64,000 nt of DNA from an uncultured Lachnospira sp. (GTDB lineage Bacteria > Bacillota > Clostridia > Lachnospirales > Lachnospiraceae): the NCBI GenBank assembly GCA_949002095.1, contig CARJMT010000007.1:6024-70023 (forward strand), given 5' to 3'. The position numbers and the translations under genes are program-made. Shown here in pieces: positions 23,997 to 30,745 of this stretch (position 1 is the stretch's first letter; the number at the start of each line of letters is the position of its first letter). The notes below the pieces were generated by a model. That model saw only the letters and a list, made by a program, of their open reading frames with translations. It was not told the DNA's origin and did not search any database.

Positions 23997-25040
23997 ATGT
24001 TTTTAGATAGAGAACCTATTTTAAAAAGGCTTCAAGAGCACTGGAATTATGCTGTGCGGCAGGGTGTTGACCCTAACCGCATTGTAGGAGTGTTCTTATA
24101 TGGAAGCCAGAACTATGGGTTCGCAAATTGGGAGAGTGATGTTGACAGTAAGTTAATTGTTGTCCCCAGTTTTGAGGATATGTGCTTAAAGTCAGATTGG
24201 TTATCTAAAGAGTTGCATCTTGAAGATGAACATATTGAAGTTAAGGACATTAGAGAATTACGAAATATGTTCTTAAAGCAGAATATCAATTTCATTGAAA
24301 TTTTGTACACGGACTATTTCATTCTCAATCCAAAATATGCGGAGCTATGGAAAACTTACTTTGTTGACAATAGAGAAGCAATCTCTCATTGCGACAGATA
24401 TAAGGCTTTAAAATCTATCAGTGGTCAGTTGATTCATACTTTGAAGCAGGGACCAAGTGATAATAAGAAACTTCATAATGCACATAGACTTTATTATTTC
24501 CTTGAGAATTATTTGAATAACAAGGTTTATTTAGAGTGCATTCATCCTGCGGGAGAATCTTATGAGTTTCTTAGAGATTTGAAGTTCGGATTAAATAAGT
24601 TAAGCCAAAGCGAAGAGGCTAAGCTTGCAAATGCGGCTGAGCTTGAGCAGAAGGTTAAAGACCTGACTTCTATGTATCCTGAGTTGGAGTCTCCGCTCAG
24701 AGAAAAAGCAATGACTGCGCTGAATAATGGAGTTATGGAAATCATTAAACTCTCTCTACAAGACCCTGAGTCTGAAATATCGAAAGAGCAGTTTTTCAAA
24801 CAGCTCACTAATGCAGAACAAAGGGCTTACTACTCTATTGTTAAGGAAGTTGGTGCGGAAGGTAATATTACCATATCCAAGCTTGTAGAAAAGAACTCCA
24901 TTTCCCGCCCAGTTTACAACAATCTTATTGTGAAAATGAAGGAGTGTGGAGTTGCAGCCATTGTCAGCCAAGGGATGAAAGGAACTAACATCAAAATTCT
25001 TCAACCTGAGTTAAAAGCAGAAGCCATTGATTTTATATAA
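23997..25040 (+). CDS. Pol-beta-superfamily nucleotidyltransferase-fold protein
   Basis: GVFLYGSQNYGFANWESDVDSKLIVV = G[GS]-x10-DxD NTase motif; 347 aa. Confidence 0.5.
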   Translation: MFLDREPILKRLQEHWNYAVRQGVDPNRIVGVFLYGSQNYGFANWESDVDSKLIVVPSFEDMCLKSDWLSKELHLEDEHIEVKDIRELRNMFLKQNINFIEILYTDYFILNPKYAELWKTYFVDNREAISHCDRYKALKSISGQLIHTLKQGPSDNKKLHNAHRLYYFLENYLNNKVYLECIHPAGESYEFLRDLKFGLNKLSQSEEAKLANAAELEQKVKDLTSMYPELESPLREKAMTALNNGVMEIIKLSLQDPESEISKEQFFKQLTNAEQRAYYSIVKEVGAEGNITISKLVEKNSISRPVYNNLIVKMKECGVAAIVSQGMKGTNIKILQPELKAEAIDFI

Positions 25041-25113
25041 AAATTATTATATAATATTTATATGAAAAACAAAAGAAAACAAAAATAAAAAATAAGAAAG
25101 AGAGGAACATCAA

Positions 25114-25392
25114 ATGTTCAACATTTTAAAGAACGGGGATATGCTCGGTCGTAAGCGTTTTGTACTGGGTCGTCTGACGAAGAAGAGTATCGCTTCTATC
25201 GGTAGTATTCAGGCGGCAACCAATAAGCTGGTGACTATCAATGATAGCATCGACCGCACAACCCATGAAATTGAGGAGATTGAAGCAAGCTTCTCACTGA
25301 TTAAGGGCGAACTTGACCAGCGTAAGGCAAACAACGCGGCTATCATCGCTCAGATTAAGTCGATGGGAGAAAGTAATGAGAAAACAGAATAG
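25114..25392 (+). CDS. hypothetical coiled-coil protein
   Basis: AAGAGAGGAAC RBS, 92 aa. Confidence 0.55.
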   Translation: MFNILKNGDMLGRKRFVLGRLTKKSIASIGSIQAATNKLVTINDSIDRTTHEIEEIEASFSLIKGELDQRKANNAAIIAQIKSMGESNEKTE

Positions 25393-25618
25393 TTATAAGT
25401 TCGTTTGGCATAAGAACGAGAAGTACGGCAGTCCAATCACTCGTGAAACTTGGGTGTTTACTGCCGGCGGACGCCAAGCCGCAGTCAACATTTTTATGCA
25501 GGCTTGCGGTAATTTAAGAAAGAATACCATTGAGCGGGCTGAAGAATATACCAGACAAGGTATGGAGCTCTTCACTCCCGAGGTAGTTAAGCAGAACGGT
25601 CGCTATGTAGCGGTCTAA
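25376..25618 (+). CDS. hypothetical protein
   Basis: GGGAGAAAG RBS before ATG 25376, overlaps upstream stop; ORF track start 25313 is internal to upstream gene. Confidence 0.5.
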   Translation: MRKQNSYKFVWHKNEKYGSPITRETWVFTAGGRQAAVNIFMQACGNLRKNTIERAEEYTRQGMELFTPEVVKQNGRYVAV

Positions 25619-25680
25619 GAAAGCAATTTGCACTTTGACAACTAAATAAAAATTTTAAAATAAAGGAGATAAAAGGATTT

Positions 25681-27231
25681 ATGGCAGAAACAATTATGGC
25701 AGCGGTTGCCCCGATTTTGTCTATTCTCATTATTGCGGCAATCCTAATCTTCGCGGTAGTCTTTGTTGGTAAGGTTATGTACAAGAAAGCTCCGCCCAAC
25801 GTAGCTATGGTAATCACAGGTCCCCGTGGAAATCGCGTTGCTATCGGTAAGGGTTGTTTTGTAATCCCAATCATCCAGCGAGTCGACTATATGTCTCTTG
25901 AGAATATCCAGTCTGACTTCACATCAAGAGATGAGATTCCGACCAGTGACGCTATCAACATTTTGGTGGATGCTGTTGCCAACGTGTCCATTTCTCAGGA
26001 CCCTGAGCGTTTGAAGATTGCGGCTTCCAAGTTCCTTGGATATAAGCCGAGTCAGATTCGTGAGATTATCACTCCTGTATTCGAGGGTAACATTCGTGAG
26101 ATTATTTCTCAGACGACCTTGAAGGAGTTAATCCAGGGCGATAAGAAAGTATTCGCTGAACGTATCATCGAGAATGTTACTCCTAACCTGCACGACATGG
26201 GTCTTGATTTGACTACATTCAACATCCAGAATTTCAAGGATAAGAATGGAGTTATTGATAACCTTGGTTTGGAGAACACGGTTCAGATTTCAAAGGATGC
26301 GGCTATCTCTAAGGCAAGAGCTGAGAAGGAAATCGCAGTTGCTAAGGCTGAAGCTGCTAAGGCTGCAAATGATGCTAAGGTCGCTGCTGATACCGAGATT
26401 GCTAAGAAGAACAACGAGCTGGAGATTCAGCGTGCTGAGTTGAAGAAGGCTGCCGATGTTAAGAAAGCTGAAGCGGATGCTGCGTACCAGATTCAGCAGG
26501 AAGAACAACGTAAGACCATCGAGATTACGACCGCTAACGCAAACCTTGCTCGTCAAGAGAAAGAAATTGAGTTGAAGGAGCGCGAAGTTTCCATTAAGGA
26601 ACGTACTCTGGAAGCTACCGTTAAGAAAGAGGCGGAAGCTCGTAAGTATGCGGCTCAGCAGGCTGCTGACGCAAATCTTTACGAAACTCAGAAGCGTTCT
26701 GAGGCTGAATTGTTCGAGAGAGCAAAGAAAGCTGAGGCTGAACAGGTCGAGGCAGAGAGACGTGCGGAAGCTCTGAAAGCAGAGGCGGAAGCTCGTAAGG
26801 TTGCCGCAGAGAACGAGGCTGCTGGTATTAGAGCCAAGGGTGAAGCGGAAGCTGCCGCAGTTCAGGCTAAGGCACTTGCTGAAGCTGAAGGTATCTTGAA
26901 GAAGGCTGAAGCTATGAAGCAGTACGGCGAAGCCGCTCAGATGGATATGCAGTTGAAAGCTATCACTACATTGTTCGAGCAGATGCCTGCTATCGCAGAG
27001 GCTGCTGGTAAGGCATACACCAACGTCGACAAGATTTATATGTATGGCGGAGAAAGCTCTAAGTTGCAGGAGGATATTATCAAGAATATCACTCAGATTT
27101 CTGAAGGCTTAACTCAGTCCATGGGTATTGACTTGAAAGGCTTGCTGTCTGGCGTGCTGGGCGCTAAGTTAGTTGGTGGCGGTTCTAAAACCATCGTTAA
27201 TGTCGAGCCTGCTGACGAAGTAGTAGAGTAA
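25681..27231 (+). CDS. flotillin-like SPFH/band-7 protein (FloT/YqiK type)
   Basis: N-terminal TM, PPNVAMVITGPRGNRVAIGKGCFVIPIIQRVDYMSL SPFH core, then long Ala/Glu/Lys-rich flotillin repeats; 516 aa. Confidence 0.75.
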   Translation: MAETIMAAVAPILSILIIAAILIFAVVFVGKVMYKKAPPNVAMVITGPRGNRVAIGKGCFVIPIIQRVDYMSLENIQSDFTSRDEIPTSDAINILVDAVANVSISQDPERLKIAASKFLGYKPSQIREIITPVFEGNIREIISQTTLKELIQGDKKVFAERIIENVTPNLHDMGLDLTTFNIQNFKDKNGVIDNLGLENTVQISKDAAISKARAEKEIAVAKAEAAKAANDAKVAADTEIAKKNNELEIQRAELKKAADVKKAEADAAYQIQQEEQRKTIEITTANANLARQEKEIELKEREVSIKERTLEATVKKEAEARKYAAQQAADANLYETQKRSEAELFERAKKAEAEQVEAERRAEALKAEAEARKVAAENEAAGIRAKGEAEAAAVQAKALAEAEGILKKAEAMKQYGEAAQMDMQLKAITTLFEQMPAIAEAAGKAYTNVDKIYMYGGESSKLQEDIIKNITQISEGLTQSMGIDLKGLLSGVLGAKLVGGGSKTIVNVEPADEVVE

Positions 27232-27237
27232 GATAAA

Positions 27238-27270
27238 AAGGGTGAGCATTTTGCTCGCCCTTTATTTTTA
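27238..27270 (+). terminator. rho-independent terminator
   Basis: AAGGGTGAGCA..GCTCGCCCTT hairpin then TATTTTTATT. Confidence 0.7.
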
Positions 27271-27332
27271 TTAAAATTTTTGTTATAATATATATGTAAT
27301 CAATAAGAAAACAAATGAAAAGAGAGGTAACG

Positions 27333-27542
27333 ATGGCTAGTCAAAGAAAGAAAGATAGGATACTGGAAGAGGTGTATGGTGATGATTATGACTTCTTTGC
27401 CTGGGATGAAAACATAAAAGGTGAAGAGTACTGGGATGAGCCGCAGTTTGACGAGTATAACGATGATGAAGAGGAGGATGAATATGAAAATCAAAAACCT
27501 GGACAGAATCAAATATACCCTTGCTCACAGAAAGGCTTTTAG
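27333..27542 (+). CDS. small acidic protein
   Basis: AGAGAGG RBS before ATG 27333; D/E-rich. Confidence 0.5.
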   Translation: MASQRKKDRILEEVYGDDYDFFAWDENIKGEEYWDEPQFDEYNDDEEEDEYENQKPGQNQIYPCSQKGF

Positions 27543-27843
27543 AAAAGTAGAAAAAGAACTGTTAGGCTACAATACTTTCAGAAGTCTTTTTCACGACCTT
27601 GACAAAGTATTCTTATATCCATTATTTGAATACAAAACGGTTCACAATTTCCATAGAAACCATACAAAACATCATAATATTAAAGCAAGCACTCATGCTG
27701 ATTTTGTTCAAATGGTAATAGATTGGGAATGTGCTAGATACACCAAACCCGACAAACCATTGAACGCTAGAGACACTTTATATGCTTTCTATCCAGAATT
27801 AGAAAATAAAGTGCTCCCTATCTTGGTAGAATTAGGCTTATAA
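27484..27843 (+). CDS. hypothetical His-rich protein
   Basis: GAGGAGGATGAAT RBS before ATG 27484; overlaps 27333 gene in another frame. Confidence 0.45.
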   Translation: MKIKNLDRIKYTLAHRKAFRKVEKELLGYNTFRSLFHDLDKVFLYPLFEYKTVHNFHRNHTKHHNIKASTHADFVQMVIDWECARYTKPDKPLNARDTLYAFYPELENKVLPILVELGL

Positions 27844-27856
27844 GGAGGAGATAAAA

Positions 27857-28054
27857 ATGCCAGATAAAATTTTTTCAGTAGTAAGTAAGTATCAATATGA
27901 GATGGATAATGAGATAAAGAAAGTGAATGCTTTCTTGAAAGATAACCCGAATTATGAGGTTAAGTCTGTTACCCCAATTATGAAGGTTGAAGATAAATCT
28001 TATGGTGCATTTAGCGGCGCTATCATTGTAGTAGGAGAGAGAAAAGGAGAATAA
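27857..28054 (+). CDS. hypothetical protein
   Basis: AAGGAGGAG RBS, 65 aa. Confidence 0.5.
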   Translation: MPDKIFSVVSKYQYEMDNEIKKVNAFLKDNPNYEVKSVTPIMKVEDKSYGAFSGAIIVVGERKGE

Positions 28055-28056
28055 AT

Positions 28057-28224
28057 ATGAGAAAAGTAAGATATTTCATCACAGAGGAAGCCGAAACAAT
28101 TACAGGTACATTTGAAGTCTCCAATACAGCAACAGAAGATGAAATCGGGGATATGGTAACCGCGGAAGTTGCTGTAAAAGTGCATGGGAACAAGTGGTCT
28201 GCGGAATGGGAGTTCGTTGACTAA
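28057..28224 (+). CDS. hypothetical small protein (55 aa)
   Basis: AAAAGGAGAA RBS 6 nt before ATG 28057. Confidence 0.45.
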   Translation: MRKVRYFITEEAETITGTFEVSNTATEDEIGDMVTAEVAVKVHGNKWSAEWEFVD

Positions 28225-28241
28225 AGGCGACCGATGATAAA

Positions 28242-28276
28242 GGTTGCTAGATAAAAATAGCAACCTTTATTTTTTA
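28242..28276 (+). terminator. rho-independent terminator
   Basis: GGTTGCTA..TAGCAACC hairpin then TTTATTTTTT. Confidence 0.65.
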
Positions 28277-28334
28277 AAAAAATTTTGTTATAATATTTAT
28301 ATAAGAAATGAAGAAAAGAAAGAGAGTGATATTG

Positions 28335-29153
28335 ATGAAGTTTATCCATGAGCATTTTAAGAATATTAACCATCTCCTATCTGCTCTTCAGTCACGTCCT
28401 AACTGTGAAGCGATGCGGGGAGAGCGGTCTTCTCAAAAGACTGGAGATGCGAGTTGGAACGGAACTAATAACTGGGATGAAGCAATTTCATTGTTCAGAA
28501 ATGGATACACAGAGATTCTTCCCGAAGTGAGGAAGGGAATGCAGAAAAACGCTAAGGTCTACCATAAGTATGCAGCATTGCCGAAAGCCTTACCGAAGAA
28601 CAAACCTGTTGGCTACATTCCAAATGTTCCAAACTCCATAATGAATCTTCCAGACTCAATGATTTATGTAGAGCGGACGCCGCAGAAGAGAAAGACTTTA
28701 TCTCTGATTTACAATATTGGTGGGAGTGCTTTTGAAAATAAGGAGTTCTTCATCAAGGCTGGAATTGCGGTGTGTACTGCATTGAACATTGTTGAGTCAA
28801 AAGGGATTCAGACCAGACTTTCAGTTGGTTTTATGCCGACAGAAGCAGACAGTGAATGTATCTGTCCGACTTTGACAATTAAAGATTTTGGACAGAAGTT
28901 TGATTTGCAGAAGATTTGTTTTCCTCTTGCTCATCCTTCGATGTTCAGAAGAATTGGTTTTAAGTATCTTGAGACTTGCCCAGAAGTAACAGACAGAAGT
29001 TTCAGCTTTGGATATGGACACCCTCTGACGAATATAGATTATATGAAAGAGGAACTTCACGTCAATGATACTGACACTTTTCTCTTGAACTGCCATTGGG
29101 TAAGAGATAATGACTATGACGTGGTAAAGATTTTAGAATATTTCAAAATGTAA
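28335..29153 (+). CDS. hypothetical protein
   Basis: AAGAGAG RBS before ATG 28335 (ORF track start 28308 lies in promoter leader); 272 aa. Confidence 0.55.
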   Translation: MKFIHEHFKNINHLLSALQSRPNCEAMRGERSSQKTGDASWNGTNNWDEAISLFRNGYTEILPEVRKGMQKNAKVYHKYAALPKALPKNKPVGYIPNVPNSIMNLPDSMIYVERTPQKRKTLSLIYNIGGSAFENKEFFIKAGIAVCTALNIVESKGIQTRLSVGFMPTEADSECICPTLTIKDFGQKFDLQKICFPLAHPSMFRRIGFKYLETCPEVTDRSFSFGYGHPLTNIDYMKEELHVNDTDTFLLNCHWVRDNDYDVVKILEYFKM

Positions 29154-29166
29154 AGGAGAGGTTAAT

Positions 29167-30306
29167 ATGTCACATCCAGTAAAATGTTTCTATTGTGGAG
29201 AAAGATTCGACAGAGACTGGGAGCCGTTTGTAAAGGTCAACTCCCAGAGATATGCACACAAGCATTGTGCAGAAGCACACGCAAAAAAGACAGGTGTAAA
29301 AATTGAGCCAAAGGAGAGGGTTGAGGAAATGAGTAGAACAGTAGAGCCGGCAAATCAGAATATGACTAAGATGGTTACAGAAATGCAGAACTTCATGATG
29401 CAGACCATCGCTCAGGCAAGTTCATCTCAGATTTTTGAGACTGTTATGCCGCAGATTGATGCAAGAATTAAGGAAGTCTACGGTTTCCTGCCTGAGATTC
29501 ATGAGGTTAAGACACCAAAAGCAACAAAGACAATCACCGGCGTACTTCATGAGAAGTTTGACGAGGTTCTCCAGATTGTAAACCTGGATATCCCTGTATA
29601 TTTAACGGGGAAAGCAGGCACAGGAAAGAACGTAATCTGCAAGCAAATCGCAGAAGCTCTGGGATTGGACTTCTACTTCACCAACGCGGTTACGCAGGAG
29701 TATAAGTTGACTGGTTTCATCGACGCGAATGGTCGGTATCAGGAAACTCAGTTCTATAAAGCTTTCACTCAGGGCGGAGTTTTCTTCCTTGACGAGATGG
29801 ACGCATCTGTACCTGAAACGTTGATTATCTTGAATGCGGCTATCGCTAACAGATACTTTGACTTCCCGATTGGTAAAGTTGATGCTCATCCTGACTTCAG
29901 AGTGATTGCGGCAGGTAACACGCTTGGTACAGGCGCGGACAATAACTACACTGGACGGTATTGCTTGGATAGAGCAAGTCTTGACCGTTTCGCTATGGTG
30001 AATATTGATTATTCCCAGAAGATTGAAATGGCTATGGCGGATGATAACGCTGAGCTGGTGAAGTTCTGCCATGCTTTCAGAAAGGTAACTGAGAAGGCTG
30101 GTATTGAGTGCCTGTTCTCCTACAGAACTATCAACAGAATCGCAAAGCTGGAGAGCGTGTTCGATAATCTTTCCAAAGTTATTCAGATTTCTCTCTTGAA
30201 GGGACTGGATATCGACGATGTGAATGTTTTGTCTAGCGAGCTTGACAAGATGAGCGATATGCGGAGCAACAAGTACGTTAAGGCTCTTAAGACCTCTGGC
30301 TTTTAA
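29167..30306 (+). CDS. AAA_5 (MoxR/CbbQ-like) ATPase with N-terminal Cys/His-rich segment
   Basis: Walker A LTGKAGTGKN, Walker B FFLDEMD, sensor region AAGNTLGTG; N-terminus CFYCGERF...HKHC. Confidence 0.75.
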   Translation: MSHPVKCFYCGERFDRDWEPFVKVNSQRYAHKHCAEAHAKKTGVKIEPKERVEEMSRTVEPANQNMTKMVTEMQNFMMQTIAQASSSQIFETVMPQIDARIKEVYGFLPEIHEVKTPKATKTITGVLHEKFDEVLQIVNLDIPVYLTGKAGTGKNVICKQIAEALGLDFYFTNAVTQEYKLTGFIDANGRYQETQFYKAFTQGGVFFLDEMDASVPETLIILNAAIANRYFDFPIGKVDAHPDFRVIAAGNTLGTGADNNYTGRYCLDRASLDRFAMVNIDYSQKIEMAMADDNAELVKFCHAFRKVTEKAGIECLFSYRTINRIAKLESVFDNLSKVIQISLLKGLDIDDVNVLSSELDKMSDMRSNKYVKALKTSGF

Positions 30307-30313
30307 GATATAT

Positions 30314-30346
30314 GAGTGCGTTCCACTTGCATGGAACGCACTTTTT
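30314..30346 (+). terminator. rho-independent terminator
   Basis: AGTGCGTTCCA..TGGAACGCACT hairpin then TTTTTG. Confidence 0.7.
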
Positions 30347-30350
30347 GTTG

Positions 30351-30420
30351 CCTGAGCGGTCGGGCAGCAATGGGTCGAGTTTCAAAATCAAAAAGTGCTT
30401 TTGGAAATTTTTCAGTTGAT
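30351..30420. repeat. about 70 nt intergenic repeat, copy 2 of 3
   Basis: CTGAGCGGTCGGGC...AAAAAGTGCTTTTGGAAATTTTTCAGTTGATTTTT. Confidence 0.6.
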
Positions 30421-30444
30421 TTTTAAATAAAAATATATTATAAT
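30416..30444 (+). promoter_or_regulatory. conserved phage promoter
   Basis: TTGATT 30416-30421, TATAAT 30439-30444. Confidence 0.65.
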
Positions 30445-30467
30445 ATTTATATGAAAAGAAAAGAGAG

Positions 30468-30650
30468 GTGTTTTTAATGAAGAAGATTAAATGTAGTGTT
30501 CACTATCCATGGGCGGGCGTTCAAGACGATGAATATATCGTTGAGGTAGACGATAACGCAACTGAAGAAGAGATTGAGGAAGCCGCCAATGAAGTTATCA
30601 ATGACCTGGTTTGGAATAGGATTTCTGCAGGCTGGGAGGAAATTGAATAG
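30468..30650 (+). CDS. small acidic protein
   Basis: AAGAGAGGTG RBS, 60 aa. Confidence 0.5.
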   Translation: MFLMKKIKCSVHYPWAGVQDDEYIVEVDDNATEEEIEEAANEVINDLVWNRISAGWEEIE

Positions 30651-30665
30651 GATAAAAAATCTTTA

Positions 30666-30694
30666 TTGATTTTTAATAAAATTTTTGATATAAT
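30666..30694 (+). promoter_or_regulatory. conserved phage promoter
   Basis: TTGATT 30666-30671, TATAAT 30689-30694. Confidence 0.7.
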
Positions 30695-30745
30695 ATTTAT
30701 ATGAAATGAAGAAATAATAAAAAATAAATTTAAAGGAGATTTTGA

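Follow-up and report, generated by a model that had tools for sequence, protein, structure and literature searches.

The window analysed here is a stretch of 64,000 nucleotides from contig CARJMT010000007.1 (forward-strand positions 6,024 to 70,023) of assembly GCA_949002095.1, filed under an uncultured Lachnospira sp. A plus-strand open reading frame (ORF) at positions 25681-27231 starts with ATG and encodes a protein of 516 amino acids, almost certainly a member of the flotillin family, on DNA that belongs to a phage. An earlier note on this DNA had proposed as much, describing a protein of the FloT/YqiK type with an N-terminal transmembrane (TM) anchor, an SPFH core and about 250 residues of Ala/Glu/Lys repeats, and both peptides that it quoted are present in the ORF. 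The gene and its parts are laid out as follows.

Positions 25662-25668, plus strand: Shine-Dalgarno sequence AAAGGAG, 12 nucleotides 5' of the flotillin ATG, by direct reading of the sequence.
Positions 25681-27231, plus strand: flotillin-family coding sequence, 516 amino acids plus stop codon, supported by profile, PDB-sequence and fold matches and by the ratio of nonsynonymous to synonymous substitution rates (dN/dS).
Positions 25699-25770, plus strand: N-terminal hydrophobic anchor, about residues 7-30 (Kyte-Doolittle 3.2), within an AlphaFold2 (AF2) helix at residues 2-33 with predicted local distance difference test (pLDDT) scores of 80-93.
Positions 25780-26328, plus strand: SPFH/Band_7 domain, residues 34-216 (Pfam PF01145 at residues 37-216; pLDDT about 90 over residues 34-195).
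Positions 26329-27045, plus strand: Ala/Glu/Lys-rich coiled-coil (flotillin) region, residues 217-455, from its composition, the helices of the model, a PF15975 match at residues 389-455 and the alignment to flotillin-1.
Positions 27046-27228, plus strand: C-terminal tail rich in Gly, Ser and Leu, residues 456-516, which is less conserved and of low confidence in the model; part of it, as far as residue 485, aligns with the C-terminus of flotillin-1.

The architecture given in the earlier note stands in each of its elements. A hydropathy scan of the whole protein finds the N-terminal helix and no other hydrophobic helix. The repeat region covers some 240 residues and is composed of 26% Ala, 17% Glu and 12% Lys. 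Because the net charge is -1 on the N-terminal side of the TM helix and +3 on its C-terminal side, the positive-inside rule predicts an N-out/C-in topology with the SPFH domain and the coiled coil in the cytoplasm. The protein has one cysteine, at residue 59.

The earlier note had suggested a profile search against PF01145 and flotillin models, and this search leaves little room for another identity. Pfam Band_7 (PF01145) scores 74.9 bits, far above its gathering cut-off of 23.6 (E=1.1e-20), over profile positions 3-176 of 176. The NCBIfam FloT model NF058507 aligns from end to end, with residues 14-492 collinear with profile positions 3-475 of 477 (E=1.8e-71). When PDB sequences are searched, human flotillin-1 (E=2e-47) and flotillin-2 (E=8e-43) are the sole matches; the flotillin-1 alignment falls into two stretches, residues 36-335 and residues 351-485, the second with E=4e-12. 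No PHROG family matches the protein, and no family among the PADLOC-DB defence-system models does so at E<=0.001. IMG labels close homologs "flotillin".

The fold agrees with the profile results. An AF2 monomer model built from 37 diverse homologs (mean pLDDT 74.9) consists of the TM helix, the alpha/beta SPFH core (residues 34-195), two very long helices (residues 197-288 and 314-445) and a poorly defined tail with pLDDT below 50. Foldseek against the PDB returns the flotillin cage chains 9l3g and 9bq2 as top matches, with E=2e-22 to 2e-19 and 28-29% identity over 430-460 columns. HflK/C, prohibitin, QmcA, stomatin and erlin score E=5e-12 or weaker, the HflK/C matches being 10 orders of magnitude weaker than those of flotillin. 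The Band 7 domain of mouse flotillin-2 (1win) superposes on the model with a root-mean-square deviation of 2.2 A over 126 columns. A flotillin-profile search of all window ORFs of at least 60 amino acids returned the flotillin gene alone, and thus no tandem pair of the HflK/HflC type. The assignment to flotillin, as opposed to another SPFH subfamily, is secure; flotillin is the closest by both sequence and fold.

The source of the DNA is an uncultivated Caudoviricetes phage of about 142 kb, as the earlier note's placement of the gene in a phage had anticipated. The window has 29 clustered transfer RNA (tRNA) genes, and nearly all of its genes lie on one strand. PHROG matches occur throughout: an endolysin, topoisomerase II subunits, DNA and RNA ligases, PhoH, Thg1, a NAMPT-like enzyme, tail-fibre-like proteins and a GIY-YIG homing endonuclease. 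A promoter-like motif, described below, recurs in 28 copies. An identical flotillin is encoded on a metagenomic contig of 141,814 bp, identical and near-identical proteins sit on contigs of 139-146 kb, and more than 120 protein clusters at 71-96% identity include many on contigs of 130-150 kb. Relatives with 55-93% identity are found on 16 IMG/VR viral contigs, most of which have 7-17 other window genes in common. That the flotillin is instead cellular, and its contig bacterial or mis-assembled, might be argued from the near relatives filed under bacterial metagenome-assembled genomes (MAGs) and from two copies (loci L021 and L022; loci retrieved for comparison carry L numbers) that are truly cellular. 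Against it stand all of the features just listed, with conserved phage neighbours around the relatives on viral contigs, and the MAG contigs L035 and L075 bear the same phage genes; we rejected these two as bacterial and regard them as mis-binned phage. A cellular origin of the window is effectively refuted.

Megablast of positions 22000-42000 against GenBank phages gave no match, and the phage therefore has no close cultured relative there. Its topoisomerase II is only 33-36% identical to the best GenBank phage matches. The endolysin is 51-68% identical to endolysins of Faecalibacterium, Acutalibacter and Ruminococcus phages; these relatives, together with the strong Shine-Dalgarno sequence, point to a Gram-positive host among the gut Clostridia. 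Integrase or lysogeny genes were not seen in the window.

Homologs of the flotillin are numerous. A profile-free exhaustive search returned 4,281 representatives at 50% clustering with E<=1e-3, 446 of them with E<=1e-30. Bacteria were scanned with a 12-sequence alignment as query and one genome per species, and mainstream cellular flotillins of Lachnospiraceae, Acetatifactor, Oscillospiraceae and Ruminococcus proved to be 45-53% identical to the phage protein. A distance-based neighbour-joining tree, rooted on a long branch, groups most phage copies in a single clade (99% bootstrap). The cellular copies L021 and L022 lie inside this clade as sister to the subclade of the window (84% bootstrap). 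One comes from the isolate "bacterium 1XD42-54", where its neighbours are an MFS transporter and an Fe-alcohol dehydrogenase, and the other from a Blautia MAG, where they are an ABC permease, a GlcNAc 2-epimerase and an alpha-L-rhamnosidase. Mis-binned phage DNA was considered for both and rejected on account of these transporter, rhamnosidase and alcohol dehydrogenase neighbours. The two genes (L021 1024-2649 and L022 6001-7437) stand as isolated phage-type flotillin genes, 70-72% identical to that of the window. Because they nest inside the phage clade, transfer from phage to bacterium would be the parsimonious reading of the tree topology, the direction not being proven by a distance tree rooted on a long branch. 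The phage promoter motif, sought 5' of both genes as a footprint of transfer, is absent there. The tree places L075 and a second small phage group (L016, L017 and L035) among bacterial sequences, a pattern suggestive of repeated exchange between phages and hosts.

The phage flotillin is under strong purifying selection. Because dS was saturated in most of the distant pairs, dN/dS is given for four pairs: three of phages, with 0.050, 0.068 and 0.032, and that of the two cellular copies inside the phage clade, with 0.046. The phage pairs differ by 0.2 to more than 1.8 substitutions per synonymous site. Conservation is highest in the SPFH domain and the coiled coil and lowest in the TM segment and the tail; in a 17-sequence alignment, mean identity to the window protein is 0.72 in the SPFH domain and 0.48 in the tail.

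The flotillin gene is the last and largest gene of a predicted three-gene transcription unit (25027 to 27263), whose remaining features are these.

Positions 25027-25055, plus strand: promoter-like site TTGATT-N17-TATAAT, an exact copy of a 29-nucleotide motif and the likely start of the unit.
Positions 25114-25392, plus strand: first gene of the unit, a small ORF of 92 amino acids, coiled-coil-like, called in ENA and Logan contigs.
Positions 25376-25618, plus strand: second gene of the unit, a small ORF of 80 amino acids, called in ENA and Logan contigs.
Positions 27237-27263, plus strand: intrinsic terminator with a 12-bp stem, 6 G-C pairs and a T-run, ending the flotillin unit.

The 92-residue ORF has no significant Pfam or PHROG match and is conserved solely in the closest relative, L004; the 80-residue ORF has no Pfam match and is found solely in L004 (79%) and L005 (37%). 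Since they are confined to the nearest relatives, the two small ORFs are not obligate partners of flotillin. The terminator follows directly on the flotillin stop codon, and the next promoter copy begins at 27261. The 29-nucleotide motif reads TTGATTTTT, an A/T-rich spacer and TTTTGWTATAAT, with the spacer itself conserved and the -10 element TG-extended. Its 28 copies in the window are all on the plus strand, against 1.26 expected by chance, and by its sequence the motif is predicted to be the phage's own class of sigma-A-type promoter, driving the flotillin unit among others. Copies run from 1406 to 61953 (for example at 22429, 25027, 30666 and 39723) and often adjoin an intrinsic terminator, which forms terminator-promoter junctions; related phage loci of 13-21 kb have 5-10 copies each. 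The same promoter class lies 5' of the flotillin-containing operon in several relatives. This operon begins with a NinI-like phosphatase in L007, L015 and L018, and a terminator hairpin with T-run right after the flotillin gene, followed by a promoter copy, recurs in L102, L108, L109, L118 and L144.

ORFs flanking the flotillin gene have no NfeD or other Pfam match. NfeD is absent as well next to the closest cellular homologs examined, so that an adjacent NfeD gene is typical of the family but does not define it. In L025 (5914-8131) and L027 (5914-8059), from mainstream Lachnospiraceae and Dorea, the cellular flotillin is preceded by a dCMP deaminase gene and immediately followed by signal peptidase I (Peptidase_S26), with no NfeD gene.

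The flotillin gene is placed in an auxiliary host-manipulation region, with PARG, a NinI-like phosphatase, a nucleotidyltransferase, RNA-repair enzymes and a NAMPT-like enzyme. A cluster of RNA-repair and NAD genes (35618-36508, 41197-42441, 43583-44797 and 47213-48255) comprises a Thg1-like tRNA-His guanylyltransferase, an RNA ligase, an AAA_33 (PNK-like) kinase with adjoining metallophosphatase and the NAMPT-like enzyme; it looks like a counter-defence or tRNA-repair toolkit. The tRNA array extends over 6675-18756, with its 29 genes on the plus strand only, most amino acids covered and copies of the promoter motif interspersed. A small minus-strand islet at 20748-22358, within the plus-strand region, holds tail-fibre-like and collagen-repeat-like ORFs and coincides with a local inversion of GC skew (-0.137 in 20001-22000). 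The GIY-YIG homing-endonuclease-like ORF at 60087-61001 has homologs of 37-43% identity in the flotillin-bearing loci L008, L009 and L017.

The earlier note had also drawn attention to an MVP homolog, with a shoulder of SPFH-like fold, as a second scaffold of the SPFH superfamily. The homolog is there: an 837-residue ORF at 30746-33259, 3.5 kb from the flotillin gene, has MVP_shoulder (E=7e-22) and Vault_3 domains. The claim about the fold was also sound, since the flotillin model matches MVP (vault) chains in Foldseek at E of about 1e-8. Vault-component-like genes occur around flotillin at 18819-20315, 22485-23255, 28308-30306 and 30746-33259. The set consists of the MVP-like protein; a protein with DUF2828 and DUF7788 domains, a weak vWA signal and a match to the PHROG "RNA-binding protein", which may be TROVE/Ro-like; a PARG of microbial type; and an AAA_5 ATPase whose partner is a DUF7192 protein. 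Viral MVPs in human-gut phages have already been reported in a preprint in which flotillin is not mentioned (10.1101/2023.11.10.566534).

A scan with an MVP alignment found the MVP-like gene on at least 130 IMG/VR viral contigs of up to 201 kb, at 54-97% identity, and 80 loci were retrieved (L101-L180). The gene also occurs, at 37-38% identity, in the "huge phage" records LR756500.1, LR756501.1 and LR756503.1 of 462-735 kb. A flotillin gene lies within 10 kb of MVP in 17 of the 80 loci, on either side of it, with gaps of 0.4 to more than 8 kb and 42-93% identity; in the other 63 none lies within 10 kb. Within the larger group of MVP-carrying phages, then, only a minority have flotillin, as an accessory gene. 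The reverse case, flotillin with no MVP within 10 kb, is seen in L008-L013 and L019. Five loci have flotillin upstream of MVP at a distance below 1.2 kb. Wherever the two are close, a terminator and a new promoter copy stand between them, and co-transcription was rejected for the window and its relatives alike, where the genes form separate transcription units. Neither consistent co-occurrence nor co-transcription, the marks of a vault-like flotillin-MVP module, was found. By sequence identity the two divergences do not track each other, L139 having 84% for flotillin and 64% for MVP and L118 having 54% and 68%. Between the two genes, L108 has two tandem mini-proteins of about 45 residues with predicted TM segments (about 9640-9920) and L109 has one (about 9740-9900), with a W-S-W...LWP motif common to both loci.

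The overall best explanation, on which our confidence is evenly balanced, is that the phage carries a flotillin that forms a cage scaffold and serves membrane maintenance during infection. Two papers describe flotillin-1/2 as a membrane-attached cage or dome of 44 subunits (PMC11260169, PMC13000311), and cages related to it (HflK/C, QmcA, stomatin, prohibitin and erlin) are among the fold matches. Cage formation is inferred because flotillin-1/2 and these related SPFH proteins form cages. By this analogy, the N-terminal helix would insert in the host membrane with the SPFH domain and coiled coil on the cytoplasmic side, and copies of the protein would join in a homo-oligomeric SPFH dome or cage, by which patches of host membrane would be set apart. 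A homo-oligomeric, TM-anchored form is expected, because the window has a single flotillin gene and the protein one cysteine. The phage flotillin is thus probably a cage-forming scaffold on the cytoplasmic face. In a long infection cycle it may supply or replace a membrane-organising or envelope-stress function of the host, whose own response is perhaps gone. It might in this way maintain fluidity, integrity, proton-motive force and the stability of membrane complexes, so that the cell would stay productive until programmed lysis; membrane-damaging abortive-infection responses would possibly be blunted. In B. subtilis the SPFH protein YdjI tethers PspA to the membrane (PMC8581546), and phage lysis is delayed by DynA, a membrane-remodelling dynamin with a genetic link to flotillin (PMC8844932). 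Drawn from such bacterial parallels, the specific membrane-maintenance role is a tentative proposal, and one that we would sooner doubt than assert.

Several observations weigh against this account. The Pfam Flot model PF15975, present in the precomputed annotation of most close homologs, reaches 25.9 bits at residues 389-455, just short of its gathering score of 27. The protein also misses the equivalog threshold of the FloT model, with 241.6 bits against 700, and is therefore named a flotillin family protein, not FloT. The expected oligomerisation is drawn wholly from homologs, and confidence in the monomer model is low over the C-terminal part, the one by which human flotillin cages are closed. 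No holin, PspA or NfeD gene stands beside the flotillin gene, and its neighbourhood has no specific sign of membrane repair or lysis control. Finally, flotillin is an accessory gene: most MVP-bearing relatives lack one within 10 kb, and it is therefore not essential to this phage lineage.

Other accounts of the gene can be set against the same evidence. By one of them, the phage flotillin co-assembles with host flotillin, or cages host membrane proteins (FtsH, receptors, defence effectors) or the phage's own holin, with the effect that host microdomains are reprogrammed, superinfecting phages excluded or lysis timed. The identity of about 45-53% to flotillins of Lachnospiraceae and Oscillospiraceae would suit co-assembly, the hetero-oligomerising human flotillin-1/2 pair being of broadly similar divergence. 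SPFH cages that enclose clients appear in the fold-search list, namely HflK/C with FtsH (7wi3, 9cz2) and stomatin with aquaporin 1 (9zd2), and an SPFH protein of a prophage satellite has been discussed in the context of HflKC, FtsH and CII (PMC4936722). A role in lysis timing could draw on distant relatives (L014, L016, L017 and L035) in which flotillin lies 2-4 kb upstream of the endolysin, but PhoH intervenes in all four, the endolysin is 23 kb away in the window and no lysis cassette is recognisable. Nor is any client or partner gene conserved beside flotillin, and exclusion in the manner of a prophage fits poorly with a window without visible integrase or lysogeny genes. We consider hijacking or sequestration of this kind unlikely. 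A passenger or moron gene, acquired from a host with no part in the lytic cycle and either neutral or of benefit to a lysogen, would explain the patchy, accessory distribution and variable position of flotillin, its own bounding terminator and the cellular exchange visible in L021 and L022. It is hard to reconcile with dN/dS of 0.03-0.07 across phage pairs that have diverged so far at synonymous sites, with a deep phage-type clade at 99% bootstrap, with a phage promoter class that drives the gene in several lineages, and again with the lack of lysogeny genes in the window; we judge it quite improbable.

The pairing with MVP that the earlier note implied, in which flotillin and the MVP-like protein jointly build a membrane-associated assembly site or a proteinaceous compartment, draws on their proximity and common promoter class in the window, on a spacing usually below 10 kb on contigs with both (including the five loci with flotillin just upstream), and on the detection of the MVP fold by the flotillin model. 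Yet 63 of the 80 MVP-bearing loci lack a nearby flotillin, L008-L013 and L019 have flotillin without nearby MVP, a terminator and promoter always part the two genes, and their divergences go separate ways. Shared synteny among related phages, in their non-structural region, explains the proximity at least as well as functional coupling does. The comparison does not support the pairing, to which we attach little probability, and for a membrane-associated assembly site or compartment the data offer no argument other than what the family is known to do. A more specific form is very improbable: flotillin-marked membrane patches would dock or nucleate an MVP-like shell, and the resulting compartment, bounded by protein and attached to the membrane, would serve replication or assembly or would shield the phage from host defences. 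If true, this would amount to a vault-like equivalent of the phage nucleus in a Gram-positive setting. In a milder version, the phage flotillin would co-assemble with host flotillin and take over host membrane microdomains.

The wider interest of the phage gene lies partly in the family itself. The role of bacterial flotillin is still debated, and retention by phages under strong selection implies a direct benefit within one infection cycle. The phage setting would thereby test flotillin function more sharply than bacterial knock-outs, whose phenotypes are mild. Gut metagenomes contain the phage-type clade in abundance, and its genes have been exchanged with Lachnospiraceae-like genomes.

A literature search on phage, viral and crAss flotillins, on SPFH proteins in superinfection exclusion or abortive infection, and on MVP with flotillin returned only passing mentions of SPFH (PMC13239085, PMC4936722); in the literature searched, the function of phage flotillin and the phage-type clade are undiscussed. 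Viral SPFH/Band-7 proteins as such are already on record, in Rhizobium phage Pasto, Streptomyces phage StarPlatinum, Vibrio phage pVa5 and, as stomatin-like proteins, giant viruses. Most of them are short, at about 250-330 residues, and stomatin- or HflK-like, whereas the phage flotillin is full-length. A single BFVD entry, A0A679DKI1, aligned over the full flotillin length, and only 8 of 50,697 GenBank phage records have any match to the protein of the window. One of the eight, the 151-kb human-gut phage csAssE-Sib (OR575929), has a protein, 29-32% identical, already annotated "flotillin family protein". Directly 5' of that gene, where bacteria place NfeD, csAssE-Sib (L020 5399-5893) encodes a TM protein of 164 residues with no Pfam match.

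Among cellular systems, FloT (YuaG) of Bacillus subtilis and YqiK of E. coli resemble the phage protein in their length of about 500 residues and in the order of anchor, SPFH domain, Glu/Ala-rich coiled coil and tail, with 473 of the 477 positions of the FloT model collinear. The phage protein differs in being encoded by a phage behind a phage promoter, in its separate clade and in its score, well short of the FloT equivalog level. The operons yuaF-floT and yqiJ-yqiK include a partner gene of NfeD type, and none is near the phage flotillin. Among solved structures, the human flotillin-1/2 cage (9bq2, 9l3g) matches best in both sequence and fold; the match takes in the SPFH domain and the wall helices and reaches into part of the C-terminal region. 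In the human complex two paralogs combine into a hetero-oligomer, and a hairpin and acylation provide its anchor. The window has one flotillin gene, and its product has a TM helix and a longer coiled coil and is predicted to form a homo-oligomer. The vault protein MVP combines a shoulder of SPFH-like fold with a long cap helix; flotillin and the MVP-like protein are both of cage- or shell-forming kinds and have the same promoter class. They differ in that MVP is soluble and without a TM anchor, that the flotillin profile detects no sequence similarity between them among the window ORFs, and that their distributions among phages are not the same. The phage flotillin brings no new architecture or mechanism and is an ordinary member of a known family, for which a sound annotation and evolutionary description are given here. 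Of interest is the evolutionary pattern of the phage-type clade, abundant and selected, with exchange to and from host genomes.

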